A stretch of DNA of 64,000 nucleotides, from assembly GCA_034506315.1 (NCBI GenBank), contig JAPDPT010000005.1, positions 36,653 to 100,652 of the forward strand, read 5' to 3'. Source of the stretch: Candidatus Zhuqueibacterota bacterium (lineage in GTDB: Bacteria > Zhuqueibacterota > Zhuqueibacteria > Oleimicrobiales > Geothermoviventaceae). A program made the translations under genes and the position numbers. Shown here piece by piece: positions 9,153 to 52,362 of the stretch (position 1 is its first letter; each line of letters starts with the position of its first letter). Below the pieces are notes generated by a model, which was given only the letters and a program-made list of their open reading frames with translations, searched no databases and was not told the origin of the DNA.

Positions 9153-9259
9153 GGCCTTACCCTCTCGATCCTCTCCCGAATCGGCCCCCTGGCGTCTCCC
9201 TTCCCGGGCCCAACAACGGCGGCGAGCGTGGGCGGTCCCGTAACGGCTCGGAGGGGACT

Positions 9260-21789: not shown

Positions 21790-23589
21790 CTACTTGACCA
21801 CCACCACCCTTTGCGTGAGGAACTCTTCCCCGCCTCGCTCGTCCGCAAAGCGGATGTGGTAGAAGTACGTGCCGCTCGGTACCCGGGGAAGCCACCGAAA
21901 CAGATGTTCACCGGGCTCGATGCGGGGAATCCACTGCCGTTCCACCACTCGGCCCCGGATGTCCAGCACGCTGATCTCCAATTCACCGGGGCTGTAGACC
22001 TCACAGACCAACTTCGCGTCGCCACGAGCGGGGTTGGGATAGCTCGGCAAGATGGAAAAGCCCCGCGGCGCCAGTGCCTGCCCCTCGATCCCGGTGGCGA
22101 TGGGCTCCACTTCCAGACCATTGAGCAGAGCGTAGTCCCTTTCTGCGCCGAAGTGGATGTTCAGTTCCCCGTCGAGAACCGGGGTGACCACCTCGATCGT
22201 CAGGGCGGCGTGATTTCCCACCCTCTGGTAGATGTCCAGATCATCGACCACCAGGCTATCCTCGACATGGATATCGAAGATCCTCTTGCCAGGTTGATCG
22301 AAGTAGTTTTCCGCCAGGTGCAGGCGCAGGCGATAGATCCCGGGGGCGAGGCGAACGTTGTAGCGTGCCAAGCCCCAGCGCTCGCTGCGGTAGATTGGGT
22401 CGAGGTCGGTGCCCGCGATTTCCAGAAGCGGCGATTGGCTGAAGCTGGTCCCCTCCTCGTAGCCGTAGAGGCTCGCCTCGGACCACGGCTGGTCCGCCAG
22501 GAATCCCGCTACCGCGTTCCCTCCCGCATTGATGCGCAGCGGGAAGGAAGGGACCTCCGGAACGGCGACCGAAACGACCTGTCCTTGCAGGGTATTGGGC
22601 GGATCGGCCACGTCCCGGATCCCCGATACAGCCAGGCTGTACGATTGCCCAAGGCGCAAGCTGTCGATGTCCAGCAGGACGGAGCGGCCATCGGGGCGCA
22701 GGTGAGCGGCGTGCACCCGTACCCCCGGGAACACGGCGTAACGGGCGGGATCGGCGGCCGACCTCTCGTCTACCCGCTCCGAAAACTGGACAAGGAGGCG
22801 TCCCCATTCGTAGCGAGCCCAGAGCACCTTGGGCGGGTTTCTGTCCACGTACCCGGTGTGGGTGGGGTCCGTAAGGCAAAGGATCATCAGCCCGTCGCGG
22901 AAGACCGCGTTGTCGGGGGTGAAGTCACAGTTATTGCCGTCCCAGGTATGGGTTGCCTTCTGCCAGCGGCTCTGGTTCCAGGAGTCGAAATCGTCTTTCC
23001 ACTGGAGGGTGAAATTGTTGTCGGTTCCCGTATTGCCCCTGCCGGGCGTGTAGGAAGCATAGCTGACGTAGTCGTAGTAAGCGAAGGCGGGCAGCACCGC
23101 GGGATCCCATTTGCCCGCCCAGTCCACATAAGCAGGCTGCCAGATGTTCATCATGATCTTCTGGGGGCGGTTCAAGGCGAGGACGTGGGTTCCCGTTTGC
23201 CTGTGCACTTCCACCCCGTCCACAAACCACGCCACGTAATGGTCGGTCCACTCAATGGCGTAGACGTGGAAATCGAGGCTCGGATCGAAGGGGACGAACT
23301 GGTGGTGCACGTGATTCAGACGATCGGGGGGAATGATGTTAAACTGCACGTCGTCGGGGTAGCGCCCCAGGATCTCGATGTCGATTTCGTTCCAGCGCGA
23401 GTTGGGGTCCACGTCGTTGTAGGTGAAGAACGAGGACAGCAAACCACTTCCCCAGGCGGCTTTCATCCGCACTTCAAAGCGGCCATAGAGGTAGGATTCG
23501 CGGGTGCGGAGCTCAGCCCCACGATAGTCCTTGGCCCATGTCAGGACTGGGACCAGGCAGGTGGCAACCAGCAACAGACGACGTTCCAT
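21790..23589 (-). CDS. GH16 beta-glucanase (laminarinase/licheninase type) carrying a malectin-like (CBM57-like) domain and a T9SS C-terminal sorting domain
   Basis: The catalytic ExDxE motif is WNEIDIEILG in a GH16 jelly-roll context (GAELRTRESYLYGRFEVRMKAAWGSG). The downstream ...RIFDIHVEDSLVVDDLDIYQRVG is malectin-like. The C-terminus ...GTYFYHIRFADERGGEEFLTQRVVVVK is a T9SS CTD. ATG at 23587-23589 with a GAGGGA RBS. Confidence 0.85.
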   Translation of the reverse strand: MERRLLLVATCLVPVLTWAKDYRGAELRTRESYLYGRFEVRMKAAWGSGLLSSFFTYNDVDPNSRWNEIDIEILGRYPDDVQFNIIPPDRLNHVHHQFVPFDPSLDFHVYAIEWTDHYVAWFVDGVEVHRQTGTHVLALNRPQKIMMNIWQPAYVDWAGKWDPAVLPAFAYYDYVSYASYTPGRGNTGTDNNFTLQWKDDFDSWNQSRWQKATHTWDGNNCDFTPDNAVFRDGLMILCLTDPTHTGYVDRNPPKVLWARYEWGRLLVQFSERVDERSAADPARYAVFPGVRVHAAHLRPDGRSVLLDIDSLRLGQSYSLAVSGIRDVADPPNTLQGQVVSVAVPEVPSFPLRINAGGNAVAGFLADQPWSEASLYGYEEGTSFSQSPLLEIAGTDLDPIYRSERWGLARYNVRLAPGIYRLRLHLAENYFDQPGKRIFDIHVEDSLVVDDLDIYQRVGNHAALTIEVVTPVLDGELNIHFGAERDYALLNGLEVEPIATGIEGQALAPRGFSILPSYPNPARGDAKLVCEVYSPGELEISVLDIRGRVVERQWIPRIEPGEHLFRWLPRVPSGTYFYHIRFADERGGEEFLTQRVVVVK

Positions 23590-35393: not shown

Positions 35394-36782
35394 TTATCTC
35401 GAAACCCGACCGAGTCCCCTCTGCTTGAGCCCCCTCGGTAACGACAGTCGCGACAAGTGGCCGTATACCACTGCTCCGGCGGCCGTAGCCGCCACAGAAA
35501 TCGGCACAAAAAGGTGCCACTGGGTAAGTACGGGGGAGCTGAACACGGGTGTAGTCCCCAATCCGTACCGGGCAATCACATGGCTGCACCCCAGAAGGAG
35601 CCCAATCCCCAAGGCAAAGCGGCAGCCCCACACCGAGAGACCCGGTCGAAGAACCTCCGTCCAGCGGACCGCAGCCACAGGTGGTACGAGGACTGCCACC
35701 ATCGAGGCCACCAGCCCCGCTGCCGCTCCGGGACGCTTAGCCGCCAGCTGCACAATTGGCAGCATTGCTACCAGTACAGCCAGGGCCGCCAGCTGCGCTC
35801 GCAGAGGCTCCGCCTGCCCTTCGGCCCCCTGCCCTGACCTGGCCCCGCCCGCCAGTTGGGCACCCGCAAACAGCATCGCCCGCAACGAAGCGCTCATCCC
35901 CGACAGGACGCCGCAGAGCGCCATCAGGACCACTGCGGCTCGCACCACTGCCGTAGCATCGGAAAACAACACCGGCCCGCCCTGCACAGCAACTGGCGTG
36001 ATCCGCACGAGGGCTGGGCCCAGGACAATCACCAGAGCCAGCTGGGCACCGGAAAGCCGCAAGCCCCGACCCTGTACACGGACGCTTCCTGCCCGGAAAG
36101 CTCGGATGTAGGCATCGTCCGACCAGAACCAGACGCTTAGGAGAATGGCTGCCAGAAAGAAAAACAGTAGCCCAGATCCCTGGAGTGCGCTCACACTATC
36201 CGGCACTTCCATCCCTGCGCCGGGAAGCCGCGCTTGGGCTCCCAGAACACAGAGGGCTGCGACCGCCACCAAGAGAGCGTGCAGAAGGTCCACCCTCGCC
36301 GAAGCCGCCCTGCCCACGGGCAACGTCATTAGCCCCACTGTGACCACAAAAAGCACCGATGCCAGGGCAGGATGGAAACCCAGAGCCGCCGCCAGAAGGG
36401 ATCCGCCGAGGACCGCGAACACCACAAACCGCCCCGCGGCCAGCAGGAGGGAGACTCCGTCCCGTAAGCCCAGGATCAAGGGGAAACTGGGGTTATGGCC
36501 TTGGTCCTGGAACTCGGCGAGAAGCGGTAGGAGTATGAGGGCGGAAGCCACTGAGGAGAGAAGCAGGATGGCAATCACCTGCCACCCCGTGACGGCCGCT
36601 CCGGCAAGAAGGAAAAGCGCTGGCGTACCGATGAGCGCCGGTAGAGCCAGCGTCGGCGCCTCCCACCGCCCAAGCAGACCTACCTCCTCAGGGTAGACCG
36701 TCGCACGCCTCCCGCGCGCTGGGTAGTAGGCGATGGTCAGCGCACCCAAAAGGTATCCGATTGTGACGGTTCGCTCGATCAC
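35394..36782 (-). CDS. Polytopic inner-membrane protein, probable transporter (family unresolved)
   Basis: About 460 aa, Ala/Leu-rich, with at least 10 predicted TM helices. The GTG at 36780-36782 with an AGGGGA RBS was preferred over the ORF-track TTG at 36821. Preceded by a sigma-54-type promoter and tandem palindromes. Confidence 0.5.
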   Translation of the reverse strand: MIERTVTIGYLLGALTIAYYPARGRRATVYPEEVGLLGRWEAPTLALPALIGTPALFLLAGAAVTGWQVIAILLLSSVASALILLPLLAEFQDQGHNPSFPLILGLRDGVSLLLAAGRFVVFAVLGGSLLAAALGFHPALASVLFVVTVGLMTLPVGRAASARVDLLHALLVAVAALCVLGAQARLPGAGMEVPDSVSALQGSGLLFFFLAAILLSVWFWSDDAYIRAFRAGSVRVQGRGLRLSGAQLALVIVLGPALVRITPVAVQGGPVLFSDATAVVRAAVVLMALCGVLSGMSASLRAMLFAGAQLAGGARSGQGAEGQAEPLRAQLAALAVLVAMLPIVQLAAKRPGAAAGLVASMVAVLVPPVAAVRWTEVLRPGLSVWGCRFALGIGLLLGCSHVIARYGLGTTPVFSSPVLTQWHLFVPISVAATAAGAVVYGHLSRLSLPRGLKQRGLGRVSR

Positions 36783-36830
36783 CCGTCCCCTACCCGGGCG
36801 TTCCCACTCACGGCCTCGCAACCCTTACGA

Positions 36831-36850
36831 AGGGCAACAAATATGCCGCC
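36831..36850 (-). promoter_or_regulatory. Sigma-54 (-24/-12) promoter-like element for the transporter gene
   Basis: Minus-strand sequence cGGCAT-ATTTG-TTGCc matches the TGGCAC-N5-TTGCW consensus: GG at 36847/36846, GC at 36835/36834, with the exact 10-nt spacing between GG and GC. It lies about 50 nt upstream of the GTG start. Confidence 0.5.
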
Positions 36851-36911
36851 CTTTCCGGAAGGCCTAAGTCCAGAATTTTCGAAACGACGAGCATCCCCGC
36901 CCGCCCCGCTC

Positions 36912-36950
36912 ATTATCACGGTGATAATGACCCATTATCAGGCCGATAAT
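36912..36950. promoter_or_regulatory. Tandem 17-bp palindromes ATTATC-N5-GATAAT (candidate enhancer / UAS for the sigma-54 response regulator)
   Basis: ATTATCACGGTGATAAT (36912-36928; an 8-bp perfect inverted repeat around one central nucleotide) and ATTATCAGGCCGATAAT (36934-36950). Centres are 22 bp apart. They are AT-rich islands in a 64% GC genome, 65-105 bp upstream of the -24 element. Confidence 0.55.
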
Positions 36951-36963
36951 ACCCCACGCCAGG

Positions 36964-39213
36964 TCACCGGCCGACACCCAGCTCGAACTGGGCCGACAGC
37001 GGGCCCACAGAGACCCTGAAATCGCCAGGCTCAACGTTTGGACGGTTGTCCAGACCGATAAACGCCAGATCGTCCTTCGTCAGACGGAACAGGACTGTCT
37101 TCTCCTGACCTGGGGCCAGGCTCACCTTCTCGAAGCGCTTCAACTTCCGAACCGAAGGGGTAACGGAGGCGTAGAGGTCACTCACGTAAAGTTGCACTAC
37201 TTCCGCTCCTTCCCGCGCGCCTACGTTCCGCACCTTGACCCGCACGGTGAGGGTGTCGTTTAGGGACATACGGCTCGGGAAGACTTCGAGGTCCGCAAAT
37301 TCGAATCGGGTGTAGCTCAGACCATGGCCAAAGGGCCACTCCGGGTTGTAACGGTTGTACGGGCCGTTTTCTTCGCTGTACTTGTGATCGTAGAGGGTGA
37401 GGTCGTTTGGATGACGCGGGTAGGTGATGGGCAGCTTCCCGCTCGGATTCACGTCGCCGAAAAGGATGTCCGCTATGGCCTGGCCCCCTTCCAGGCCGGG
37501 AAGGTAGGCCATCAGGATCGCCCTCGCGCCGTCCACGATCCGGCGGATCACACGGGGTCTACCTTCCACAAGTACCACGACGACCGGCACACCGGTTCGC
37601 TCCAGCGCTTCCACCAGTCGGAGCTGCGCCTCGGGCAGGTTGAGATCGAGAATGTTGCCTGGGGTCTCGCAGTAAGGAGCCTCGCCCACACAGGCGATCA
37701 CCACGTCCACTCCTGCTGCGGCCTTCACGGCCGCCTTTACGTCGATCTCGCGATCAAACGTGGCCCCCGGAACGTAACGCACCCTCCTTTCCCCCACTTT
37801 CTGCTGGATGGCCTCCAGGATGGTCAGCTTCTCCTGCGGGTAGAGGTCCTCGCGGTTCCCTTGCCAGGTGATCGTCCACCCGCCGTTCAGACAGCTCAGA
37901 CAATTGGCCGCAGGACCGGTGACCAGTACGCGGGCCGTCTTCTTCAAGGGCAAAAAGTCCCCGGCGTTTTTGAGGAGCGTAATTGATTCTTGCGCTGCCT
38001 GAAGAGCTACTCTCCGGAACTCCCTATGGCCGATCTCTCCCCTGCGCGCCGCATCGGGATAGGGATTCTCGAAGAGCCCGAGCTCGAACTTGAGGCGCAA
38101 GATTCGCCGTACAGCTTCATCGATCCGCGCTTCCGGAACTTCGCCCTCGCGCGCGAGCTCCAGAAGCAGCTCGTAAAAACTGAAATCCTCCGGGACCATA
38201 CTCATGTCCACTCCGGCCAGAACGGCCATTTTCACCGCCTCTTTCTGGGTGGACGCCACGTGGTCCCGGTAGTGCAGGTTGTTGATGTCCGCCCAATCGG
38301 AGACCAGCAGGCCATTGAATCCGAGCTCGCCCCGCAACAGATCGGTCAAGATGAACTTGTTGGCGTGCACCGGCCTCCCGTTGACCTCGCCGCTGTTGGC
38401 CATGACGGTGTGCACTCCTGCTTGGATCGCCGCCCGAAAGGTCGGCACGAAGTACTCCCGCAGCATGTTCTCGGGGATCCAGGCTGGGGTTCGGTCTTTG
38501 CCGGTAAGAGGGAAGCTGTAACCGAGATAGTGTTTCGCACAGCCTGCGACCCGGCCCGGCGCCGCCACGTAGTTGTCTTCCCCTTCGAGACCCTTCACGT
38601 AGGCCGCCCCCATGGTTGCGGCGAGGTAGGGATCTTCCCCGAAGGTCTCGAAGAGCCGAGGCCAGAGGGGCTGGCGTCCGATGTCCAGGACCGGTGAGAA
38701 GTTCCAGGGGATCCCGCAGGCTCGCACCTCAAAAGCCGTGATCTCTCCGTTCTTCCGCACGAGCTCCGGGTTCCAGGTGGCCGCCATCCCAAGGTTGTGC
38801 GGGAAAATTGTGGCGCCGACTGTGTAGTTTGCTCCGTGGACGGCATCGATCCCGTACAGGATGGGGATACCGAGCCTTGACTCCTTGGTGGCCACATCCT
38901 GAATCTGGGTGATGATGCGATGCCACTGATCCACCGTGTAGGCGGCGTTCACCACATTGAGGATCGAGCCCACATGGTAGTCCAGTATGGCCCTGCGCAG
39001 CTTCTGGGGGTCAAGTACATCGTCCGAAGAGTCCGCAGCGACCACCTGAAGGGTCACCTGCGTCATTTGTCCCACTTTCTCTTCCAGCGTCATCTGGCGC
39101 AGTAGATCATCCACCTTGCGCTCGATTTCCTCGCGGCTGGGACGATCGGACCCCACCGCCTGGCTTCCGAAAAGCAGGACCATACCCAGTGCGCAGATCC
39201 AAGCATTCTTCAT
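36964..39213 (-). CDS. GH3 family beta-glucosidase (BglX-like), periplasmic/secreted
   Basis: GIPILYGIDAVHGANYTVGATIFPHNLGMAATWNPEL and the catalytic nucleophile context GFNGLLVSDWADI (SDW) are present, along with C-terminal GH3 domains. Signal peptide MKNAWICALGMVLLFGSQAVG from the ATG at 39211-39213. Confidence 0.9.
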   Translation of the reverse strand: MKNAWICALGMVLLFGSQAVGSDRPSREEIERKVDDLLRQMTLEEKVGQMTQVTLQVVAADSSDDVLDPQKLRRAILDYHVGSILNVVNAAYTVDQWHRIITQIQDVATKESRLGIPILYGIDAVHGANYTVGATIFPHNLGMAATWNPELVRKNGEITAFEVRACGIPWNFSPVLDIGRQPLWPRLFETFGEDPYLAATMGAAYVKGLEGEDNYVAAPGRVAGCAKHYLGYSFPLTGKDRTPAWIPENMLREYFVPTFRAAIQAGVHTVMANSGEVNGRPVHANKFILTDLLRGELGFNGLLVSDWADINNLHYRDHVASTQKEAVKMAVLAGVDMSMVPEDFSFYELLLELAREGEVPEARIDEAVRRILRLKFELGLFENPYPDAARRGEIGHREFRRVALQAAQESITLLKNAGDFLPLKKTARVLVTGPAANCLSCLNGGWTITWQGNREDLYPQEKLTILEAIQQKVGERRVRYVPGATFDREIDVKAAVKAAAGVDVVIACVGEAPYCETPGNILDLNLPEAQLRLVEALERTGVPVVVVLVEGRPRVIRRIVDGARAILMAYLPGLEGGQAIADILFGDVNPSGKLPITYPRHPNDLTLYDHKYSEENGPYNRYNPEWPFGHGLSYTRFEFADLEVFPSRMSLNDTLTVRVKVRNVGAREGAEVVQLYVSDLYASVTPSVRKLKRFEKVSLAPGQEKTVLFRLTKDDLAFIGLDNRPNVEPGDFRVSVGPLSAQFELGVGR

Positions 39214-39236
39214 CGCCATCCCCTTGCCTTTCAGCC

Positions 39237-42209
39237 CTACTTGAGCACAAGCCACTTCCTGACCTCCACGGAGCCTCCCAGTGCAGCCTTCAGCAGATAC
39301 ACCCCCGTCGGTAGCCGATCCGCGCCCTCTAGGACCTGGCCAAGAGCCAAACGGAGGCGACCGGCCTTGGCCCTGAGTGGGGCGGACTCCATCACTTTCC
39401 TGCCTCGGAGATCAAACACGGCAATCGCCACTTCCCCCTGATGTGGCACGGCAAGCTGCAGATAGCAATCGTCTGCCCTGCAAGCCGAAGGCCTCCAGGG
39501 GTTGGGATAGAGACTCTCAATGGCAAACCGTCGCGGGATTTGCTGCGGGGAGGATTCGTTCTCCGCACCAGAAGGGCCACGGTAGATCTTCAGGCCGTAC
39601 CACACGGTGCGGTCTTTGGCCTGGTCCAGCTCGATCCGGAACCGACCGCCCACCACGGGCGCCCGCCACGAGCGCGCCAGCTCGGACTCGCCCTTGCGCG
39701 AGAGCGGGAAAATCCGCACGGAGTCCGCCGGAGTGGCAAGCTCCAGGACCACGCGCCGGGGCTCTACAAACGTGGGAGGCCTCCCCCATTGGTCATGGAC
39801 CGTACGCACGCCATCCCAGATCATGCCGTCATTCTGCACCCGGGAGGCCAAGGCTACAAGTACGCGATTGGTCGAATCGAAGGGCAAGCTGTCCACACAA
39901 ACAGCCGTCAGGGTCGTAAACCCGTCTGCGGACACCACCCTCCACGGACCGGTCTCCAAGCCTGCAAAGCGATCCAGCATCCCCGTGAAGGCCAAGAAGC
40001 GCGGACTAGCCACCCGCAGAAGGCCCAAGGGGTCCCACAGGATCTCTCCCGTATCCGAAAGGTACGGAGGACCGGACACGGCCGGAAGATGGCTCGCATC
40101 CAGGGGGGAGGGGCTCTGGAAGTCCACATTGCGCAGGCTATGGAGTAGGGCCAAACGCGGGTCCACAGGGGAGGGACCTTCCCATCCTCGGTAGCCCCGG
40201 CTTGGCTCCAGCAGCACATCCTCCCTATAGCTGTAGGCCAACGGAATCACCTGCCGCGCGGGCGCGACAAACCCCGCCCGGAGAGCGAGGGCGCAGGTGG
40301 GCATGTGAGCCATAATCGCTGTATTTCGGTGGTCGCTGAAAAAGCCGCGGACCAGATCGGTCTCCCAGTCGTCGCTGGTGCTCGCGTACTCGAAGAACAT
40401 GAAGCCGTCCGCGTCGTGGAACGCCGAGTAGGCCGTGATGAAGACCACGCCCTCCGTCTGATAGCGATTGGGGAAGGGATGGTCGTATTCACTGACTGTG
40501 TAAGGCTTGCCGGCCCAGGCTCTCCCGGCAAACAGCCGGCCGATTGTGGCGCCATTCGTCTCGAGCACCATCGCCGTGTTGTTGATGAACCAATCCACGG
40601 GTGACCAGGGCTCTCCTGGAAACTGAGGGTGGTCCCAGTACGCATGGTTGTCCACGTAATCCGCCTGCGACTGCACGTAGAGGTCCACCAACCCGAAGTT
40701 CCAGTTCGTGCGCACGATCGGCACCTTGACGCCGACCTCCGTTCGGAGGTAATTCTCCATGTCCGAGAAGAAACTCTCCTGGAGGCGGATGTAGAATTCC
40801 GTCTGGTCGGCTACCCGCGCGTCGCTGTAGGAGGGGCAGGCAGAGAAGGGGATGCGCCGCACCGTGCCTGCTTCGAGGCGCTCATCCTCAGCAAGACCAT
40901 AGCGAAGGCCTTCGTAGAGGTGCAGATCGTCAAACCAGTACGTACCTCGGGAGGCCCCCAGGAAAAAGCTCACCCGGAGATTGGTGTACTCCTGATCGGG
41001 CCTCCAGCTCATCGAAAAGGTCTGCCAATTGGGTTCGAGACGGAAACGACCGTAGGCGTACGTCGTCCAGGGGTCCGCGTTTTTCATGATGACCACGGTG
41101 ATGTCGCGGGGCGCGTCGGCTCGAGCCAGGAACTGCAGGACGTAGACGGAGTCCCTGTGCACGGCCAGACCGGCCTGCTGCCATTGCACGTGCCAGTCCA
41201 CGCCGTCTGTGGCCGTTACCACGACCCGTGCCGAGAGCCTTCCTTCCGCGGGGTCGGATGTGTCCACTGCCTGGTTGGCGGCTGCTGGGGAATGCACTTC
41301 GAGTCTCCAATTGCGAAGCGCCGGATCGCTATCGATCGTTCCGCCCTTCAGGAGATCGCGAGCAGCTCGCAGCTCGGCACCCCCCCACGCAAGACGCAGG
41401 TTCTCGGTGCTCCCGTACTTGTCCCTTAGAAACTGGCACCAAAGGCTGTCCAGAAGCCGGGCGTGGTAGTAGGTCAAGTTACCCCCCTCTCGAATGGGGG
41501 CCAGCAGGTCCTGACGCCACATGTAGTAGAGCGAGTTCTCGTTGGTGATCTCCACCATGGCCATCACCGGGTCGTCCTTCAGCGGGAGACGGGTGTAAGG
41601 GTTCACGTGGGTCAGGAGCTGGCGCGCGTATTCCTTCTGAAGCTCGATCAGACGGCGATCGAAGAGGCTAACCCCCTTGGCGAAATCGCGCAACGAATCA
41701 GCGTAGGGAACGCCGTCCTCCCTCCGGAAGGTACGGCTCACGTGAAGATTGACGTTGACGCGAATGCCATTGCGCTTCAGGTGAGCGATCAGATACTCCA
41801 GCCTGTCCAGCGTGACCGGGTTCAGGTGTCGTGTGTCAGAGCCCTGCTGAAACAGACTGCCCGGGCTCCACGGATTGTCCATGTGGTGCAGGCGGACCAG
41901 ATTGAAACCCATCTTTCGCAGCCGGGCCGCAATCCAGGGGGCCTTCGACTTGACCGGGAAGCAGCCATCGGCCACCAGATTCGTGCCGAAGAAGCGGAGC
42001 CGCTTGCCGCCTGCGGCGAAGTGGCCCTCCCCGTTGATGGTGACGAATTCGCCTGGACGGACAGCCTCGCTAAACGAGGGCCAACACTCCTGGAACGAAC
42101 TGTCCTCGGGCGGAAGGTAGAACGAGAATCCCCCGGTGAACTCCTGAGGAAAGGCCAGCCCCACCGCAACGAACAGCCCCGTTACCGCGATGGTAACCGC
42201 TCTGGTCAT
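39237..42209 (-). CDS. Large clan GH-A (GH5-like) glycoside hydrolase with T9SS C-terminal sorting domain
   Basis: The (beta/alpha)8 N-terminal region NLVRLHHMDNPW ... VMAMVEITNENSLYY has an NE acid/base-like strand-4 motif as in GH5. About 990 aa with beta-sandwich C-terminal modules. The C-terminus ...GVYLLKAALGGSVEVRKWLVLK is a T9SS CTD. ATG at 42207-42209 (MTRAVTIAVTGLFVAVGLA). Confidence 0.6.
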   Translation of the reverse strand: MTRAVTIAVTGLFVAVGLAFPQEFTGGFSFYLPPEDSSFQECWPSFSEAVRPGEFVTINGEGHFAAGGKRLRFFGTNLVADGCFPVKSKAPWIAARLRKMGFNLVRLHHMDNPWSPGSLFQQGSDTRHLNPVTLDRLEYLIAHLKRNGIRVNVNLHVSRTFRREDGVPYADSLRDFAKGVSLFDRRLIELQKEYARQLLTHVNPYTRLPLKDDPVMAMVEITNENSLYYMWRQDLLAPIREGGNLTYYHARLLDSLWCQFLRDKYGSTENLRLAWGGAELRAARDLLKGGTIDSDPALRNWRLEVHSPAAANQAVDTSDPAEGRLSARVVVTATDGVDWHVQWQQAGLAVHRDSVYVLQFLARADAPRDITVVIMKNADPWTTYAYGRFRLEPNWQTFSMSWRPDQEYTNLRVSFFLGASRGTYWFDDLHLYEGLRYGLAEDERLEAGTVRRIPFSACPSYSDARVADQTEFYIRLQESFFSDMENYLRTEVGVKVPIVRTNWNFGLVDLYVQSQADYVDNHAYWDHPQFPGEPWSPVDWFINNTAMVLETNGATIGRLFAGRAWAGKPYTVSEYDHPFPNRYQTEGVVFITAYSAFHDADGFMFFEYASTSDDWETDLVRGFFSDHRNTAIMAHMPTCALALRAGFVAPARQVIPLAYSYREDVLLEPSRGYRGWEGPSPVDPRLALLHSLRNVDFQSPSPLDASHLPAVSGPPYLSDTGEILWDPLGLLRVASPRFLAFTGMLDRFAGLETGPWRVVSADGFTTLTAVCVDSLPFDSTNRVLVALASRVQNDGMIWDGVRTVHDQWGRPPTFVEPRRVVLELATPADSVRIFPLSRKGESELARSWRAPVVGGRFRIELDQAKDRTVWYGLKIYRGPSGAENESSPQQIPRRFAIESLYPNPWRPSACRADDCYLQLAVPHQGEVAIAVFDLRGRKVMESAPLRAKAGRLRLALGQVLEGADRLPTGVYLLKAALGGSVEVRKWLVLK

Positions 42210-45672: not shown

Positions 45673-47697
45673 TTAATGGACAACGGTGAGCTTTTGCACA
45701 AGCTTGCGGCCACCGCTCTCCAGCACACAGACGTACACGCCACTGGGGACGCGCTGGAACTCCGCATTCCGACCGTCCCAGGTTACGTTCCGCAGCCCTG
45801 CTCTGACCTCCCCCGAGTGTACGGTGGCCACCAGTCCCCCCATCGAGTCGAAGATCTGCACACGCAGTGGCATCTCCTCATTGGAGAGAACCGGTATGGC
45901 CAGGCGCTCTCCCACCGGATTGGGGTGAGGCCGTCCGATCCAGAGCCCGCTCCTCAGCTCCTGGAACATGCCCATCTGCTTCACGCTGGCCCCAGCGATC
46001 CGGAAATCAACCAAGTTCAGGTTGAAACCGCCGGTGGGGAAGAGGAGCTTCAGCACGTGCCGGCCGGAAGGCAACGTCACCGTGGGGCCGTCAATGTACT
46101 GCCAATTTTTCCAGCCGCCCGTGGAGGGAATGGCTATGGGGCCAGCCAGAGGCGAATCGTCCAGGAAGAGCTGGACGCTGCCCGTCGCCTGAGGGGAGGC
46201 CACGCGTAATCGGACCGTGTACGTTCCTTCCACGTCCACCTGGACGGTGAACTTGAGCCATTCGCCTGCCTCGATCCAGCCGACGCTGTAGCCGTTTCCC
46301 TCTGTGTCTCCACTGGCCTCGATATCGACCCCGTCGTTGCGAAAGACGGAGCCTCGGTTCCATTGCTCGCCGCTTGTGAGGCCTTTGGTCTTCCAGTAAT
46401 CTGTGTCGTGATAGGCCACGCCCTCGTTGCCCATGTCGTACTCAACCGCCAGCAGCCGGCCCGGAAGCCGGTGCTCCGAGTAGGGAACCGGTTCGGTTGT
46501 GAACCCGGGTCGGAGGAGGGCGTCCACCACATCTGGGTGGTACACGCAGTTCTCGAGCTTCAGCTGCTCCGCCATCCCGAACAAGGCGCGACGGGCCAGC
46601 TCGGCATCGGGCCGGGCGGCTCTCCCATTCCAGTAATCGAGCACCCGCTGGTACTCGGCGGTGATGGGGGCCGAGAACGGGCTGGTGAGGGTCTGGAACT
46701 TCTTATGGGTCCACCAGCACCAGCCGATTTTGTTCTGTTCCATGAGCCGGATGCAGGTGCCGAACCAGGGGTTGGAGTTCTCTCCGGACTCGCCAAGCCA
46801 GAGGGGAGTGTGGTAACGCCTTCGGATGTCAAGCAGGTACTGGATGGTCGGCAGGGTCGGCTCGTTCCAGTACTTGTGGAAGCTGTAGCAGAGATTGACG
46901 TCGAAGGGGGGCGTGAGATTGCTGAAATCTGTGGCGTACCAGTTCCCTTCGATGAAGACCATGTGGTTGGGGTCCACTTCGCGGATCGCCTGCGTGATCC
47001 GCATGTACAGAAGACGAAGCTCGGTGGTGCTGTGGCCCGAAGGAAGCACAGGCTCATTGAGGAGGTCATAGCCTCCGATCCACTCCTCCTGCGCGTACCT
47101 CTCGGCGATACGGCGCCAGATGTCCACCACCCGATCCTGATTCGAGGGGTCGGTCCAGAGGCGGGCCTCGATCCCGTCCGAATCGCTATGGTTCTCTTTG
47201 TTCTGCCCACCGGGGGCGCAATGCATATCCAAGATCAGGTAGAGGTGATACTTCCTGCACCACTCCACCACCCGGTCGAGGAGCTGGAATCCCTCCTCTA
47301 AGTACACACCGGGCTGGTCGGGCGGTGTGAGAAGCGCGTAATGAAAGGGCAGCCTGATGGAGTTGAACCCCCACTGGGCAATCCGCGCCACATCCTCCTC
47401 CGCCACGTAGTGGGCGCGGTATTGCTGGAAGAACTCATCGGTCAACTGGGGACCCAGCAGGTCGGCGATGAGATTGCGAATGGACGTCGGGGAGCCGAAT
47501 CCGGGCACTCTCAGCATGTAGCCCTCGGGAACCAACCAGCCGCCAAGTCCCAGGCCCCGTAGGATGACCTCCTCCCCGGTACGGGTGTCGATGATGCGCT
47601 CGCCTTGGGCCTTCAGAAAGGCGAGAGAAGGCACCGGGAGGAGACCGCACAGCAAGACCCCCGTCAGCGCACTCCAAAGTCGCGCATTCGGCTTCAC
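45673..47697 (-). CDS. GH5 family beta-glucanase with C-terminal CBM6/35-like module and T9SS CTD
   Basis: FNSIRLPFHY...LILDMHCAPGGQN...GYDLLNEPV (NEP acid/base motif) identify GH5. The C-terminal beta-sandwich GEWLKFTVQVDVEGTYTVRLRVASP...GGWKNWQY resembles CBM6. The C-terminus ...SGVYVCVLESGGRKLVQKLTVVH is a T9SS CTD. GTG start at 47695-47697 with a GGAGGTGGG RBS, giving signal peptide MKPNARLWSALTGVLLCGLLPVPSLA. Confidence 0.8.
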   Translation of the reverse strand: MKPNARLWSALTGVLLCGLLPVPSLAFLKAQGERIIDTRTGEEVILRGLGLGGWLVPEGYMLRVPGFGSPTSIRNLIADLLGPQLTDEFFQQYRAHYVAEEDVARIAQWGFNSIRLPFHYALLTPPDQPGVYLEEGFQLLDRVVEWCRKYHLYLILDMHCAPGGQNKENHSDSDGIEARLWTDPSNQDRVVDIWRRIAERYAQEEWIGGYDLLNEPVLPSGHSTTELRLLYMRITQAIREVDPNHMVFIEGNWYATDFSNLTPPFDVNLCYSFHKYWNEPTLPTIQYLLDIRRRYHTPLWLGESGENSNPWFGTCIRLMEQNKIGWCWWTHKKFQTLTSPFSAPITAEYQRVLDYWNGRAARPDAELARRALFGMAEQLKLENCVYHPDVVDALLRPGFTTEPVPYSEHRLPGRLLAVEYDMGNEGVAYHDTDYWKTKGLTSGEQWNRGSVFRNDGVDIEASGDTEGNGYSVGWIEAGEWLKFTVQVDVEGTYTVRLRVASPQATGSVQLFLDDSPLAGPIAIPSTGGWKNWQYIDGPTVTLPSGRHVLKLLFPTGGFNLNLVDFRIAGASVKQMGMFQELRSGLWIGRPHPNPVGERLAIPVLSNEEMPLRVQIFDSMGGLVATVHSGEVRAGLRNVTWDGRNAEFQRVPSGVYVCVLESGGRKLVQKLTVVH

Positions 47698-47732
47698 GCT
47701 CCCACCTCCTCGCCTTGTTACCTTGGGTGATG

Positions 47733-47752
47733 TGAACAAAATCCAGGCCGGA
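47733..47752 (-). promoter_or_regulatory. Weaker sigma-54-like -24/-12 element for the GH5 gene
   Basis: Minus-strand cGGCCTG-GATTT-TGTTc: GG at 47749/47748 with correct spacing, but the -12 element is TTGT rather than TTGC. It sits about 35 nt upstream of the GTG start and 75-115 bp downstream of the tandem palindromes, the same geometry as at 36.8 kb. Confidence 0.3.
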
Positions 47753-47824: not shown

Positions 47825-47864
47825 ATTATCGCCATGATAATGGGACGTTATTGTTCTGATAACG
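47825..47864. promoter_or_regulatory. Second pair of ATTATC-N5-GATAAT-type palindromes (candidate UAS), upstream of the GH5 gene and adjacent to the sigma-54 regulator gene
   Basis: ATTATCGCCATGATAAT (47825-47841) is a perfect ATTATC-N5-GATAAT site. CGTTATTGTTCTGATAACG (47846-47864) is a degenerate GTTAT-N7-ATAAC site. Centres are 22 bp apart, identical to the pair at 36912-36950. Confidence 0.5.
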
Positions 47865-48053: not shown

Positions 48054-49514
48054 TTACTTGAGCCCGAGATCGCGGCACATCCGATGGAAGTTCGGTGGTG
48101 CCAGACCGAGCATCCGGGCGGCTTCTGCATCGGAGGAGCAGATCTTTCGCACGTAGCGGAAGTACTCCTCGCGGAAGCGCCTCTCCATTTCGCGCCAGGG
48201 GAGAATCTTCCCGTCGCCCGCGCGCCGTAACCAGTCCTCGATCTCCACCTCTTTGCGAAGCCGGATCTGGAAACCAAGAGCCTCCTCTACGTCCTCCCGG
48301 TCCAGACGCGGCTTCCCGGTCAGGAGAAGCCGCTGTATCACGTTCTGCAACTGGCGCACGTTCCCAGGCCAGGGATAGCCCAGCAGGACTTCCATGGCTG
48401 CCGGGCTCAGCTCCGGCGGGAGGCGGCCCATCTCGTCGCTATACCGCTTGAAATAGTGATCTGCCAAGAGGGGGATGTCCTCCCTTCGTTCGGCAAGGGG
48501 GGGCACGTAGATCGTCAGGACATTGAGGCGGTAGTACAGGTCCTCCCGGAAACGCCCTTCGCTGACCTCGCGCTCCAGATCTCGATTGGTGGCCGCGATC
48601 ACCCGCACGTCAACTTTCACGCGCCGCGTTCGTCCGATCTTGTCGATCTCCCCCTCTTGGATCACACGCAGCAGCGTGGACTGGGTGCTGAGGGGCAGCT
48701 CCGTGATCTCGTCCAGAAAAACGGTGCCCCGATCGGCCAGCTCGAAAAGGCCAGGCTTGTTGGCTTCCGCCCCCGTAAAGGCGCCCTTCTCGTACCCGAA
48801 GAGCTCACTTTCGATGAGGTTCTCCGGCAAGCTCCCGCAGTTTATGGGGAGGAAGTTTTCGAAACGGCGGCGACTGAGGTAATGGATATGAGTCGCCACC
48901 AGCTCCTTACCGGTACCGGAGGCGCCTCGGATCAATACCGTACTGTCGGTTTCAGCACACTGGCGGATCTGCTCGCGCAGGCGCTGAATGGCCGGCGATT
49001 GTCCCACAATGACCCGTTGGGCCAGGATATCCTCGATGCTCTTCTCCAGGCGAGCCGCGGAACGCCGCTTCTCCAGTTCCAGGCGCCTCTTCTCATAGGC
49101 ATTGAAGATGCTCAGAATAAAGTCCGTGGGCTGGTAAATGAAGTCGTCGATGTCGGCGGGGTACTTGGTGCAGTACCAGGTGGCCCCGGCTTCCAGGAGG
49201 CGATTGGCGAATTCGTAGTCGGTCATGTTGATGGTCATCTTGGTCACCACGATGATCTGGAGCGCCGGGTCAATCTCTTTGATGCGGCGGATGAGCGGCT
49301 CTCCCATGAGGCCGCCCGCGATCTGGAAGTCCATGATCACCACGTCGTACGAGCTCGGCGACTTGGCCAATTGCTCCAATGCCAGCCGCCCGTTAGCGAA
49401 CACGTCCACGATCTTGATCCGGTCTGCGAAGGGTTCGAGCGTACGTCGGATGCGGCGCACGTCGAACTCCTCGTCCTCGATCAACATGACCCGGATCGTA
49501 TGGCCCTTGCCCAT
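48054..49514 (-). CDS. Sigma-54-dependent two-component response regulator (NtrC family: receiver - AAA+ - Fis-type HTH)
   Basis: The receiver domain is IRVMLIEDEEFD...VVIMDFQI. The AAA+ sigma-54 activator domain has Walker A GASGTGKE, the GAFTGA sigma-54 contact loop (YEKGAFTGA) and an ESELFGY motif. The C-terminal HTH is AARMLGLAPPNFHRMCRDLGL. ATG at 49512-49514. Confidence 0.9.
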   Translation of the reverse strand: MGKGHTIRVMLIEDEEFDVRRIRRTLEPFADRIKIVDVFANGRLALEQLAKSPSSYDVVIMDFQIAGGLMGEPLIRRIKEIDPALQIIVVTKMTINMTDYEFANRLLEAGATWYCTKYPADIDDFIYQPTDFILSIFNAYEKRRLELEKRRSAARLEKSIEDILAQRVIVGQSPAIQRLREQIRQCAETDSTVLIRGASGTGKELVATHIHYLSRRRFENFLPINCGSLPENLIESELFGYEKGAFTGAEANKPGLFELADRGTVFLDEITELPLSTQSTLLRVIQEGEIDKIGRTRRVKVDVRVIAATNRDLEREVSEGRFREDLYYRLNVLTIYVPPLAERREDIPLLADHYFKRYSDEMGRLPPELSPAAMEVLLGYPWPGNVRQLQNVIQRLLLTGKPRLDREDVEEALGFQIRLRKEVEIEDWLRRAGDGKILPWREMERRFREEYFRYVRKICSSDAEAARMLGLAPPNFHRMCRDLGLK

Positions 49515-49518
49515 GGGC

Positions 49519-51009
49519 TCAGCTCCTGCTCTCATTGGGGATGGTGATCACAAACTGGCAGCCGCGGGAGAGGTTCTCGGCGTCGATCCTCCACCCGCAG
49601 CGCTGCGTGGCAATCTCGTAGGCGATGTAGCAGCCATAGCCGCTCTGATGGGCTGTGGTCTTGGTCGACACGTTCTCCAGGAACAGCCGTTTCACCCCAT
49701 TTTCCTCCAGAAGAAGATCCGGACGGATCCCCACCCCGTTGTCCCCGATGTAAACCTTGGACTCGCCTTTTTCCGGATCGTATACGGTCCGAATGTGTAC
49801 GGTGACCTGCCCATCGCCGGCGTGGTCCAGGCTATTCTGGATCAGCGGCTCAAAAACCTCCCACACGACGAACTCATTGACGTGGACCACAGGCAGATTC
49901 GGGTCCAGGTCCAGCTGGAACTGGTAGTCGCCAAGCGGGGCCGAGACGCGGCGGAAGATGTTGTCCACCAGGAACTGCAAGAGCTCGTTGATGTCCGTTC
50001 GGAACATCGGCCCTCGGATGGCCTGAATTGGCGGGTCGTAGGTCTTCATGTCGTAGATCACGCGGGAGATGAAATTAGCGTACTTGGACACGCGGTACTT
50101 GACCTCCTGGATGTTCTCCACGGACAGGCGCCGGAGATCTTCTTTGATGAAGCCCATGATCTTCTCGGCTTTGTGGTGGGTGTGGTAGATCCGCTTGGCG
50201 AAGAGGGCTTCCTTTTGGTGGTGAATTCGTTCCCGCAGTTGGCGCTCGCGTTCCTCGAAAAGCTGGCGCTGGGCCTCATCCCTCTCCTTGACCGTGTAGG
50301 ACGAGATGTAGAACATGGCAAGCAGGCCAAAGAAAATGAGGCCGGTGAAGATGAGGCTGCTTTCGTTGTAGCTGGAGACGATGCCGCTGGTTACGATCCC
50401 GAAGTCCGGGGCGTACTTCATGTAAAGGGCACCCATCAGCTCGCCCTTCGGGACGAAGGGGACGAAAACGTGGAACGTCCGCGGCGGTTCGACGAGGCTC
50501 CGGATCTGCTCCTGGGAGATGATTTCATCGAAATGCTCACGGTAGAGCTGGAGGGCGCGCGCGTAGGTCGTGTCGTTATCCGCCGGGGGCTCCATTCCCC
50601 AGAAAAGGGTTGCGAACAGCTGCTGCCCGTTGTCCACCGGATGGGCGTTGGCGCCATCGCCCAGAAGCAGGCAGACCTGCTGCACATGGTGCTGGAGCAG
50701 CTGCTCGCTCAGAATGATATTGAAAGCCTGGATGATCTTCTTCGCTTCGTCGTCGCTGACGAAAGGACGGCTCTCAAGGCTCGTCTCCAGAAGCAACTCA
50801 AGGGAAGTTGCGGTGAGATTCGCCAGCTTCTCCGCGAAATCGCGTTGGTACCACTCCTGTGTGTTCACGAGAAACTTCTGCAGGGAGACCTTATGGATAA
50901 ACGACACTAACACCTGGAAGAAGACGAGCACCGAGAGGAGCACCATCAGGTGTTTCAGCTCGAAGTGATAGGGCCTCACCTTATCCATTAACTTCTGCAC
51001 GTACCTCAT
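49519..51009 (-). CDS. Sensor histidine kinase (membrane-anchored, HATPase_c)
   Basis: N-terminal TM segment MVLLSVLVFFQVLVSF. The C-terminal GHKL ATPase stretch is ...LIQNSLDHAGDG...IGDNGVGIRPD...GYGCYIAYEIATQRCGW. Its stop lies 5 nt before the regulator start, so the two are operonic. Confidence 0.75.
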   Translation of the reverse strand: MRYVQKLMDKVRPYHFELKHLMVLLSVLVFFQVLVSFIHKVSLQKFLVNTQEWYQRDFAEKLANLTATSLELLLETSLESRPFVSDDEAKKIIQAFNIILSEQLLQHHVQQVCLLLGDGANAHPVDNGQQLFATLFWGMEPPADNDTTYARALQLYREHFDEIISQEQIRSLVEPPRTFHVFVPFVPKGELMGALYMKYAPDFGIVTSGIVSSYNESSLIFTGLIFFGLLAMFYISSYTVKERDEAQRQLFEERERQLRERIHHQKEALFAKRIYHTHHKAEKIMGFIKEDLRRLSVENIQEVKYRVSKYANFISRVIYDMKTYDPPIQAIRGPMFRTDINELLQFLVDNIFRRVSAPLGDYQFQLDLDPNLPVVHVNEFVVWEVFEPLIQNSLDHAGDGQVTVHIRTVYDPEKGESKVYIGDNGVGIRPDLLLEENGVKRLFLENVSTKTTAHQSGYGCYIAYEIATQRCGWRIDAENLSRGCQFVITIPNESRS

Positions 51010-51021
51010 GGCGGACCCTTC

Positions 51022-52362
51022 CTACTTGAGTACAAACTGGTTGGAAAAAATGGCGGCCTGCGCCTTTTCCAAAGCCTCTGCCACCGACATTTCCCCCCGA
51101 ATGGCCAGGTTTGCGTAATAGGAGAGGATATCCGACACCTGCGTGTAGCGCTCAATGTAGGGGCGGTGCACGCCGTGCTCCATCAGCCTTCGGTACAGGG
51201 ATAGATCTGGGTGCGCCGCGAGGAACGAGGTGTCTGCGTAGATGGACTGCAAGACGGGGATGTACCCGGAGGTTTCGTAGAGGATCTTCTGGTTCTGCTC
51301 TTCAAGGAGGAAACGCACAAAAGTCAGGGCAGCCCTCCCGTTGCGGGAGAATCGCGAGATCATCAGGTTCCATCCGCCGAACACGAAGGCGGGCCGCCCC
51401 CCGGCAAAGTGCGGAAGCGGCGCCAGACCGAAGTTCGACAAGGGAGCGGTCCTTTCAATCTGTTCCCGGTAGTGGAGGAGAAACCCTGGCCAGCCGCGGA
51501 AGAAGATCGCGTTGTGATCCAAGGCGTACATGTAGCTCAGGATCTCGTCGAAGAAGACCACCTTGGGCGGCGTGGCGCGGTAGCGATGGACCAGGTCGGC
51601 GAGGAGCTGCAGGCTGCGCCGGGCCGCGGGCGTATTGACCCGAATCCTCCCCTCGGCATCCACGAGGGAATCCCCCAGGCTCATCACTCCCTCCACGAAA
51701 CTGCAGATGAGCCCCTCGTAGTTGTCCGCCGCGAAGAGGTAGTACGGGCTCGTCTTGGGGCTCCAGCGCTCGAACGCGGCTAAGAATTCTTCCCAGGAGA
51801 TCGAGCGCTGGACCTTCTCCTGGAGCGCCGGCCAGTCCGGAAGTTGTTGCAGGAGGTCCTTGCGGTAGTACATCAGGCCGATGTCCAGGTAGAGGGGCAC
51901 GGCCATCAGCCTTCCCTGGTAGTAGCAGGAGGTCAAAGCATAGGGCAGAAGGCGCGCGCGATCTGCGTGCGTGAAGTAGGCGTCGAGCGGCTCCCCCCAC
52001 TTGGCGAAGCGCGGTACCCAGATGACGTCCACCGAAAACACGTCGATGCGGTCGCTCTTGCTGCGAAGGGCCCGTGCCAGAAGCTCCTTGCGTTCGTTGG
52101 TGCTGAAGCGGGTGAAGGGCAAATGGACCGTAATGACCTGGTAACGATTGCGGTAGCGTTCGTTGAAGCGCCGCACAATCTCCTGGTGGGCAGGGGAAAT
52201 GTTGTCTGCGTAGTAGATTTTCACCACAGGCGGGCGCGCCGGTGAGGTCAGAATCGCCGGACCGACGATAATGGCCAAGATCGCCACCCCAATCACCGCA
52301 AACGTGACCCCCCAGAGCACGCGGCGCCCAAACTTCTCCTCCTGTTGCTCTTCCATGGGCAA
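51022..52362 (-). CDS. Extracellular solute-binding protein (family-1 sugar ABC-type SBP) with no cognate permease; likely a sensor-associated ligand-binding component
   Basis: N-terminal membrane anchor/signal VLWGVTFAVIGVAILAIIVGPAIL. An SBP_bac_1-like body follows (...VDVIWVPRFAKWGEPLDAYF...). TTG start at 52362 with a GGAGGTG RBS. Directly followed by the kinase and regulator genes. Confidence 0.7.
   Translation of the reverse strand: MPMEEQQEEKFGRRVLWGVTFAVIGVAILAIIVGPAILTSPARPPVVKIYYADNISPAHQEIVRRFNERYRNRYQVITVHLPFTRFSTNERKELLARALRSKSDRIDVFSVDVIWVPRFAKWGEPLDAYFTHADRARLLPYALTSCYYQGRLMAVPLYLDIGLMYYRKDLLQQLPDWPALQEKVQRSISWEEFLAAFERWSPKTSPYYLFAADNYEGLICSFVEGVMSLGDSLVDAEGRIRVNTPAARRSLQLLADLVHRYRATPPKVVFFDEILSYMYALDHNAIFFRGWPGFLLHYREQIERTAPLSNFGLAPLPHFAGGRPAFVFGGWNLMISRFSRNGRAALTFVRFLLEEQNQKILYETSGYIPVLQSIYADTSFLAAHPDLSLYRRLMEHGVHRPYIERYTQVSDILSYYANLAIRGEMSVAEALEKAQAAIFSNQFVLK

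Follow-up and report, generated by a model that had tools for sequence, protein, structure and literature searches.

The beta-glucan cluster of a Candidatus Zhuqueibacterota bacterium raises the question of how its genes are switched on, and in particular what function resides in a 181-nt spacer (36783-36963) within it. The spacer belongs to a 64-kb stretch of a metagenome-assembled genome (MAG), the whole of which is referred to here as the window, and it separates the stop codon of a glycoside hydrolase family 3 (GH3) beta-glucosidase gene from the GTG start codon (36782) of a gene for a 462-aa membrane protein. The genes around this spacer, termed site A, lie on the minus strand throughout. 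According to the original prediction, the spacer has the geometry of enhancer-binding-protein sites and a sigma-54 promoter. This interpretation is now supported by a second module in the window, by blind scans of other genomes, by a promoter element at a fixed offset, and by phylogenetic footprints. With a probability of roughly 80%, the sequence evidence favors the reading that the spacer is a sigma-54-dependent promoter with an upstream enhancer, run by the NtrC-type activator and the histidine kinase that are encoded in the same locus. The module has two copies in the window and recurs in several related phyla, again next to these sensor and activator genes; it is therefore most likely a switch for beta-glucan genes.

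The spacer contains the two copies of ATTATC-N5-GATAAT, centered 22 bp apart, that had been described in it, and both are perfect 17-bp palindromes. The promoter-distal one, ATTATCGGCCTGATAAT (36934-36950, minus strand), begins 13 nt past the GH3 stop codon and is centered at 36942. The promoter-proximal one, ATTATCACCGTGATAAT (36912-36928, minus strand), is centered at 36920 and scores 19.8 bits with a position weight matrix (PWM) from other genomes. The GC content of the 39-bp tandem block is 38.5%, and that of the window is 62% rather than the 64% given for it earlier. The -24/-12-type element said to follow about 70-100 bp downstream, cGGCAT-N5-TTGCc, is found at 36833-36848 (minus strand, CGGCATATTTGTTGCC). 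Its GG (36847/36846) and GC (36835/36834) have the exact GG-N10-GC spacing and are oriented toward the gene. The GG is 73-74 bp from the center of the proximal palindrome and 95-96 bp from that of the distal one, with about 65 bp between the palindrome pair and the element. The geometry of sigma-54 promoters is established, and from the position of the -24 G the operon start is predicted at 36822 (+/-2 nt, minus strand). This start would give a 5' untranslated region (UTR) of about 40 nt and would place the palindrome centers at about -98 and -120, which fits activator enhancers located 80-150 bp upstream of the promoter (PMC4987338).

A second module, site B, which was absent from the original prediction, is located about 190 nt past the stop codon of the activator gene. 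Its promoter-distal palindrome, GTTATCAGAACAATAAC (47847-47863, minus strand), is conserved in the related loci L201 and L203, and its promoter-proximal one, ATTATCATGGCGATAAT (47825-47841, minus strand), is the third perfect palindrome of the window; the two are again spaced by 22 bp. The -24/-12-type element CGGCCTGGATTTTGT (cGGCCT-N5-TTGT; 47736-47750, minus strand) follows 75 nt downstream of the pair with GG-N10-GT spacing; at 14.8 bits, no other minus-strand position in the window matches the promoter PWM as well. A predicted start near 47724 would leave a 5' UTR of about 27 nt, with the palindrome centers at about -109 and -131. On the 3' side of the element are a Shine-Dalgarno sequence and the GTG start (47697) of a glucanase gene (45673-47697, minus strand) that encodes a GH5 domain, a carbohydrate-binding module of family 6 (CBM6) and a type IX secretion system (T9SS) tail. 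This is the first gene of the site B operon, which continues with GH116, GH5/CBM4 and GH3 genes.

Chance could account for the site A promoter element taken alone, but not for the palindromes. Three perfect copies of the palindrome are present in the window, versus 0.29 expected even with two mismatches allowed. With PWMs trained solely on sites from other genomes, the two tandem loci of the window reach 38.3 and 37.0 bits, and no other position exceeds -9.4. At site A, the -24/-12 element departs from TGGCAC-N5-TTGCW at three positions, and by the family PWM (8.5 bits) it is only the sixth-best match of the minus strand. Alone it is within chance, and the interpretation therefore needed testing against other genomes.

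A scan with the motif only (TTATC-N6-ATAA-N7-TTATC-N5-GATAA), covering one genome per species in 185,579 species, returned at least 120 stretches, about half of which come from an unrelated dispersed repeat in one Prevotellaceae MAG. When the window proteins were compared by tblastn with the other 55 stretches among the matches listed, at least 14 of the 55 were found to encode orthologues of the kinase and/or the activator, at 45-89% identity. The motif-bearing loci among the matches listed came from KSB1, Calditrichia, Ignavibacteria, Bacteroidota and unclassified MAGs. In these loci the tandem site is mostly directly past the activator stop codon, and the gene that comes next is a GH5/CBM6, GH3, GH16 or sodium:solute-symporter gene. 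In several more matches the motif precedes an orthologue of GH3, GH5 or a symporter, and the contig is not long enough for the regulator gene to be visible. The Prevotellaceae repeat (MAG RUG13180; L003, L005, L006 and more than 60 other loci) is array-like and dispersed, with the unit GATAAGTGCCACTTATCTCGGAGATAA..., and is an accidental match to the pattern by a different unit.

The original prediction had itself named a REP-like (repetitive extragenic palindromic) repeat as an alternative, and an RNA hairpin or terminator ending the GH3 message would be a related one. The nearness of the tandem block to the GH3 stop codon and the superficially similar TTATC..GATAA repeat dispersed in the Prevotellaceae MAG speak for this explanation. 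However, just two tandem loci occur in the 64-kb window, both upstream of genes, and the Prevotellaceae repeat has no linkage to the kinase/activator system. A terminator scan found no terminator between GH3 and site A or the membrane protein gene, and at permissive E-values the spacer was without an Rfam family, the sole match being a chance snoRNA (E = 0.99). The stems of such a hairpin would consist of 6 A/U-rich pairs. We regard a repeat or message-ending hairpin as scarcely credible.

Searches in the opposite direction, from genes to motif, gave a consistent picture. Among 80 metagenomic loci chosen for a GH3 orthologue (55-65% identity), the strict 22-bp tandem was present in one, L122, which is syntenic with the window and reproduces both of its sites. 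One tandem of L122 is upstream of GH5/CBM6 and is followed by TGGCGCgattgTTGTA; the second is directly past the GH3 stop codon, with TGGCATatttcTTGTA 74 nt on and then a GH16 gene. A relaxed motif found only three matches in the 712 kb of the remaining GH3 loci (L121, L123 and L124); these three are among the loci most similar to the window, and each pair directly precedes a GH3 or CBM9 orthologue. In addition, four kinase orthologues (55-60% identity) were picked blind to the motif. Three of the four (L208-L210) have an adjacent activator gene, and all three of these carry a tandem TTATY-N5-RATAA past the activator, followed by TGGCAT-N5-TTGTA, TGGCGT-N5-TTGTA or TGGCAC-N5-GTGAC. With a spacing of 21 or 23 bp, the palindromes in L208-L210 had escaped the strict 22-bp pattern. 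Tandem TTATY-N5-RATAA pairs (21-23 bp) with a TGGCAY-N5-(T/G)TG element are also present in L127/L128. Across the other genomes the palindrome spacing is 21-24 bp, and the strict 22-bp scan thus misses true sites spaced by 21, 23 or 24 bp. The linkage between motif and activator gene holds both ways, from motif to activator and from kinase or activator to motif, and GH3 loci without the kinase/activator system do not carry the strict tandem.

The promoter element follows the tandem at a restricted distance. The pattern [TC]GG[CTA][ACT][CT]-N5-[TAC]TG occurs on the gene strand 50-78 nt downstream of the tandem at 23 of 29 sites, with 0.019 expected per 30-nt window. Most of the other sites carry a close variant of the pattern; at two, the element is located further away, at 137 and 151 nt. 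Since this pattern had been designed after the data were seen, the test was redone with the published core consensus, TGGCACG-N4-TTGCW, fixed beforehand and applied to the region 45-100 nt downstream of the tandem at 32 sites. At least 8 of 12 positions matched at 84% of the sites and at least 9 of 12 at 53%, compared to 16% and 2.4% in random windows of the same loci and 12% and 0% on the antisense strand (Mann-Whitney p = 1e-15 versus random and 1e-8 versus antisense). The 32 sites are partly non-independent phylogenetically, in genomes that span 30-62% GC and have unalignable intervening sequence. Predicted 5' UTRs across the loci are mostly 12-100 nt long. Helical phasing of the enhancer-promoter distance was considered and dropped, because the distances cluster at about 72 and 85 bp, which are 13 bp apart and not a helical repeat. 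The distance appears instead to follow the class of gene, symporter genes having the one and hydrolase genes the other.

The closest relatives provide a footprint of both sites. The order of GH3, spacer and membrane protein gene is kept in L204 (GH3 78% identical) and in L205 and L206 (72%). In the four-way alignment of site A with these loci, the invariant columns concentrate in TTATC..TGATAA..CATTATC..TGATAA and in GG.A..T.TTGC, the remainder of the spacer having diverged. The promoter reads TGGTATgtttgTTGC in L204 and CGGTACaaatcTTGC in L205. The retention of the site A element in three diverged relatives and in L122, with the flanks randomized, argues for purifying selection. At site B, comparison with L201 and L203 showed conservation of only the palindromes, the -24/-12 element and the ribosome-binding-site/start region, and the -24/-12 block includes 17 contiguous bases that are invariant in L201 and L203.

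These footprints bear on whether site A is a functional promoter or a weak, decaying copy whose palindromes are real activator sites, the operon being served mainly by read-through from site B, 11 kb upstream. Read-through would fit the lack of a terminator between GH3 and the membrane protein gene, and the site A promoter is far below that of site B in PWM score (8.5 bits and sixth, versus 14.8 bits). Against this, both site A palindromes are perfect, and the -24/-12 element has outlasted its flanks in the relatives named above. We consider a decaying site A unlikely.

As a separate observation, the site A -24/-12 element is inside an inverted repeat, AAGGGCGGCA-TATT-TGTTGCCCTT (36825-36856, minus strand), that folds as a hairpin. 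The hairpin is not conserved in L204 or L205 and for that reason was treated as incidental. The promoters of L076 and L016 show symmetry of the type TTTGGCA-N7-TGCCAAA.

Several points weigh against a sigma-54 promoter run by the locus activator. Matches to TGGCAC-N5-TTGCW with up to two mismatches number 16 in the window versus 24 expected, and the site A promoter agrees with TGGCACG-N4-TTGCW at 8 of 12 positions, a level that 16% of random 55-nt windows reach. Both promoters of the window have C, not T, before the GG. The canonical C of the -12 element is found in only 10 of the 32 sites (A in 10, T in 11, G in 1), with TTG invariant; it is present at site A, L204 and L205. This C is normally highly conserved in sigma-54 promoters, so the pattern is unusual, and a -12 element of TTG without C might reflect a lineage-specific preference of sigma-54. 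For rpoN in this genome, the intact GAFTGA loop of the activator is only indirect evidence, and no RpoN-box peptide was found in the sequences covered, six frames of the window and of 206 related loci (1.7 Mb). The C-terminus of the activator has no HTH_8 match in Pfam even at E <=5, and matches HTH_17 at E = 0.008. The palindromes contain sigma-70-like GATAAT hexamers. Finally, the co-occurrence of motif and activator gene would also fit another co-inherited factor that binds the palindromes, and is not proof for this activator.

Some of these points could be accommodated if the palindromes were operators of a different dimeric regulator, such as a repressor, over a housekeeping-sigma promoter with a -10-like GATAAT, the GG-N10-GC being incidental. 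A sigma-70 consensus scan does find CTGATA-18-GATAAT within the tandem block, and the site A -24/-12 match is weak when taken alone. Yet among the large open reading frames (ORFs) of the tightly packed cluster (21.8-54.7 kb) the sigma-54 activator is the sole regulator, the motif tracks the activator gene, and TGGYAY-N5-TTG is conserved across phyla at a fixed offset and strand. A different regulator therefore seems quite improbable. The hexamers GATAAT and ATTATC also resemble the classical Fur box hexamer, GATAAT, and the operon includes a TonB-dependent receptor gene that a Fur-like metal regulator might control. However, this receptor belongs with the glycan receptors of the CarboxypepD_reg/SusC-like type, glycoside hydrolases and symporters make up the regulon, and the motif is linked to a sigma-54 activator gene, all of which makes metal control highly improbable. 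A Fur box was also rejected on geometry: the palindromes are of the form 6-N5-6, lie 5 nt apart and repeat every 21-24 bp, and are neither contiguous hexamers nor of the 7-1-7 type.

The sigma-54 reading assigns the palindromes to the regulator with a GAFTGA loop that had been noted about 11 kb away. This is borne out by an ORF at 48054-49535, in which the gene (48054-49514, minus strand) encodes an NtrC-type activator with a receiver domain (REC; Response_reg, E = 1.8e-11), an AAA+ domain (Sigma54_activat, E = 7e-71) with GAFTGA at residues 251-256, and a putative C-terminal helix-turn-helix (HTH). The closest relatives of known structure are Aquifex NtrC1 (1NY5) and NtrC4 (4L4U) and ZraR (1OJL), at E of about 1e-76. 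All 25 of the NCBIfam equivalogs listed score far under their cut-offs for this protein (for example, NtrC with 319 of 559 bits and AtoC with 324 of 714 bits). The C-terminus is aligned by the NorR and NtrX profiles and by PDB 5M7N, and its putative recognition-helix region, SDAEAARxLGLAPPNYHRMCKxLGLK, is kept in all orthologues, as fits a conserved DNA motif. The activator is thus the presumed binder of the palindromes.

The gene of the cognate sensor histidine kinase (49519-51009, minus strand) is next to that of the activator. In its product, two predicted transmembrane segments flank a periplasmic domain some 175 aa long. Residues 1-352, which include the periplasmic sensor domain and the DHp phospho-acceptor region, have no Pfam match even at E <=5. 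In an AlphaFold model (pLDDT, the predicted local distance difference test, 78.6), the periplasmic domain is a long helix followed by an alpha/beta unit, and the model matches full-length WalK as well as the cytoplasmic cores of HK853 and ZraS. The kinase family is well conserved, with an invariant IYHTHHKAEK segment, and has at least 1,847 members at E <1e-20, none functionally named. Directly upstream is the gene for a periplasmic sugar-type solute-binding protein (SBP_bac_8; 51022-52362, minus strand). A solute-binding protein of family 1 is in this position in every locus with enough upstream DNA (L025, L029, L034, L050, L059, L069, L076, L089, L127/L128, L201-L203 and L207-L210). This arrangement suggests that solute-binding protein, kinase and activator form a three-component sugar sensor.

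The comparisons show the elements themselves, how well they are kept, and that they are linked to the genes for kinase, activator and solute-binding protein; from this we infer how the switch would operate with respect to DNA binding, control by phosphorylation, ligand and start site. The kinase would probably sense beta-glucan oligosaccharides through the adjacent solute-binding protein, as judged from gene content only, and would phosphorylate the activator, which would assemble into an active AAA+ ring. Two activator dimers would bind the two 17-bp palindromes, and the ring would reach, by DNA looping, the closed complex of RNA polymerase and sigma-54 on CGGCAT-N5-TTGCC (36848-36833). The use of ATP would then, via GAFTGA, remodel the closed complex and open the promoter; the general NtrC-type mechanism of enhancer, AAA+ ring and looping is summarized in PMC4987338. 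Transcription from about 36822 would first cover the gene for the symporter-like membrane protein and then those for the CBM9/T9SS protein and the TonB-dependent receptor, and would continue beyond. The GH5-GH116-GH5/CBM4-GH3 operon would be driven by the module at 47863-47736, which is of identical design, and site A would accordingly be the second promoter, an internal one, of a single beta-glucan regulon.

At the head of the site A operon is a gene (35394-36782, minus strand) that had been called a transporter gene. Its 462-aa product is indeed a polytopic membrane protein, identical to NCBI ONB23_02590 of a candidate division KSB1 MAG, but the assignment as a transporter finds support in a remote match to a symporter profile only, as the protein has no Pfam or NCBIfam match. 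Its family comprises three clusters, two besides its own, among 1.84 billion representatives. Alignment of the family with the sodium:solute symporter (SSS) of L128, which occupies the same regulatory position, gave an hhalign probability of 80% and an E-value of 1.5e-5 over about 290 collinear columns, including WFWSDDAYIR against WYWCTDQVIVQR (the WFWSDD/WYWCTDQ segment). An AlphaFold model made from three sequences had a pLDDT of 42.5, too poor for a fold search. Orthologues hold the equivalent position in L204 and L205, and in many other genomes the gene in this regulatory position is a sodium:solute symporter. The order in L210 (symporter of the SSF family, TonB-dependent receptor, protein of about 1190 aa) parallels that of the window minus the CBM9/T9SS gene. 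From these comparisons the membrane protein is probably a very divergent symporter. The GC content of its codon positions (0.73/0.52/0.70) is atypical for the genome, though position and sequence are conserved in L204 and L205.

The cluster as a whole is a beta-glucan utilization locus of the Fibrobacteres-Chlorobi-Bacteroidetes (FCB) type. In the direction of transcription it consists of GH16, the solute-binding protein, the histidine kinase, the sigma-54 activator, site B, GH5, GH116, GH5/CBM4, GH3 (36964-39255, minus strand; the last gene of the operon upstream of site A), site A, the membrane protein, the CBM9/T9SS protein, the TonB-dependent receptor, a 1155-aa protein, a PorV-like protein and a further GH16. 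In L122 the gene after site A (8522-10330) encodes a GH16/malectin/T9SS glucanase. Its orthologue in the window (21790-23589, minus strand) closes the same gene string, another 13 kb downstream, a displacement which shows that operon content has been rearranged. Orthologues of the solute-binding protein and kinase are also encoded in another Zhuqueibacterota MAG (L207, 7001-9151), with no downstream activator and no tandem motif, and the kinase-activator system may have been lost or split there. In two Firmicutes, a tandem TTATC-N5-GATAA occurs just downstream of a different family of sigma-54 activators (L017 5916-5952, Anaerosphaera multitolerans; L096 ~6531-6585, Lachnoclostridium sp. An14). 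These activators have an N-terminal sensory region, an AAA+ domain and a standard HTH, and are 43-48% identical to the window activator in the AAA+ core only. The L017 motif adjoins apparent amino-acid catabolism genes.

Among known systems, the NtrB-NtrC pair acting at promoters of the glnAp2 type is, like the one proposed here, a two-component system whose regulator has REC and AAA+ (GAFTGA) domains and an HTH, which is putative in the present activator. The NtrC site, TGCACC(A/T)4TGGTGCA, is a 17-bp dyad, and two such sites lie next to each other some 100-140 bp ahead of a GG-N10-GC promoter (PMC4987338). The dyad geometry equals that of the palindromes in the window, whereas the motif here is TTATCA-N3-TGATAA, and the regulon would serve beta-glucan utilization rather than nitrogen metabolism. 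Nothing like TTATCA-N3-TGATAA is present among the enhancers tabulated for activators of Salmonella (PMC4987338). NtrB is cytoplasmic and controlled by PII, in contrast to the present kinase, which is transmembrane with a periplasmic domain and a partner solute-binding protein. Aquifex NtrC1/NtrC4, Escherichia coli ZraS-ZraR and AtoS-AtoC are the best matches of the activator among solved structures and curated families, and the activator also matches the AtoC, ZraR and NorR profiles; the targets and enhancer sequences of NtrC1/NtrC4, ZraR and AtoC are unrelated to those found here.

Sigma-54 control of carbohydrate catabolism through an upstream activating sequence is exerted in Firmicutes by activators of the LevR/CelR type. 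These have phosphotransferase system regulation domains, belong to another phylum and act on other targets, whereas the activator here has a receiver domain and a kinase. Clusters of TonB-dependent receptors and glycoside hydrolases in Bacteroidota are controlled, in response to oligosaccharides, by SusR, by hybrid two-component systems and by extracytoplasmic function (ECF) sigma/anti-sigma pairs. These systems use housekeeping or ECF sigma factors, and none is known to be a sigma-54 enhancer-binding system, in contrast to the solute-binding protein, classical kinase and separate AAA+ activator encoded here. Periplasmic binding proteins that are encoded beside a membrane kinase and presumably signal to it are known from ChvE-VirA, CBP-ChiS and TorT-TorS. 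In the present case the output would be a sigma-54 activator, and an interaction between binding protein and kinase is suggested by gene order only.

A full-text literature search found no published description of a system composed of solute-binding protein, kinase, activator and tandem motif. We put at about even odds the broader proposal that these loci represent an undescribed sigma-54 beta-glucan regulon with a three-component sensor, a distinctive tandem enhancer and a -12 element of TTG without C, distributed across the FCB phyla KSB1/Zhuqueibacterota, Calditrichota, Ignavibacteriota and some Bacteroidota MAGs. The mechanism, an NtrC-type enhancer and a sigma-54 promoter, is classical, and the advance would therefore consist of a new regulon, its motif and its distribution in the FCB group rather than a new principle. 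If the proposal is true, polysaccharide loci have a mode of control outside the known types of Bacteroidota regulator, and relatives of Bacteroidota can place polysaccharide clusters under sigma-54 and not under the SusR, hybrid two-component or ECF systems of gut Bacteroides. It would also provide a testable regulatory code for a large uncultured group, comprising DNA motif, promoter class, sensor triad and target operons, and the motif would allow beta-glucan regulons to be predicted in metagenome-assembled genomes directly.

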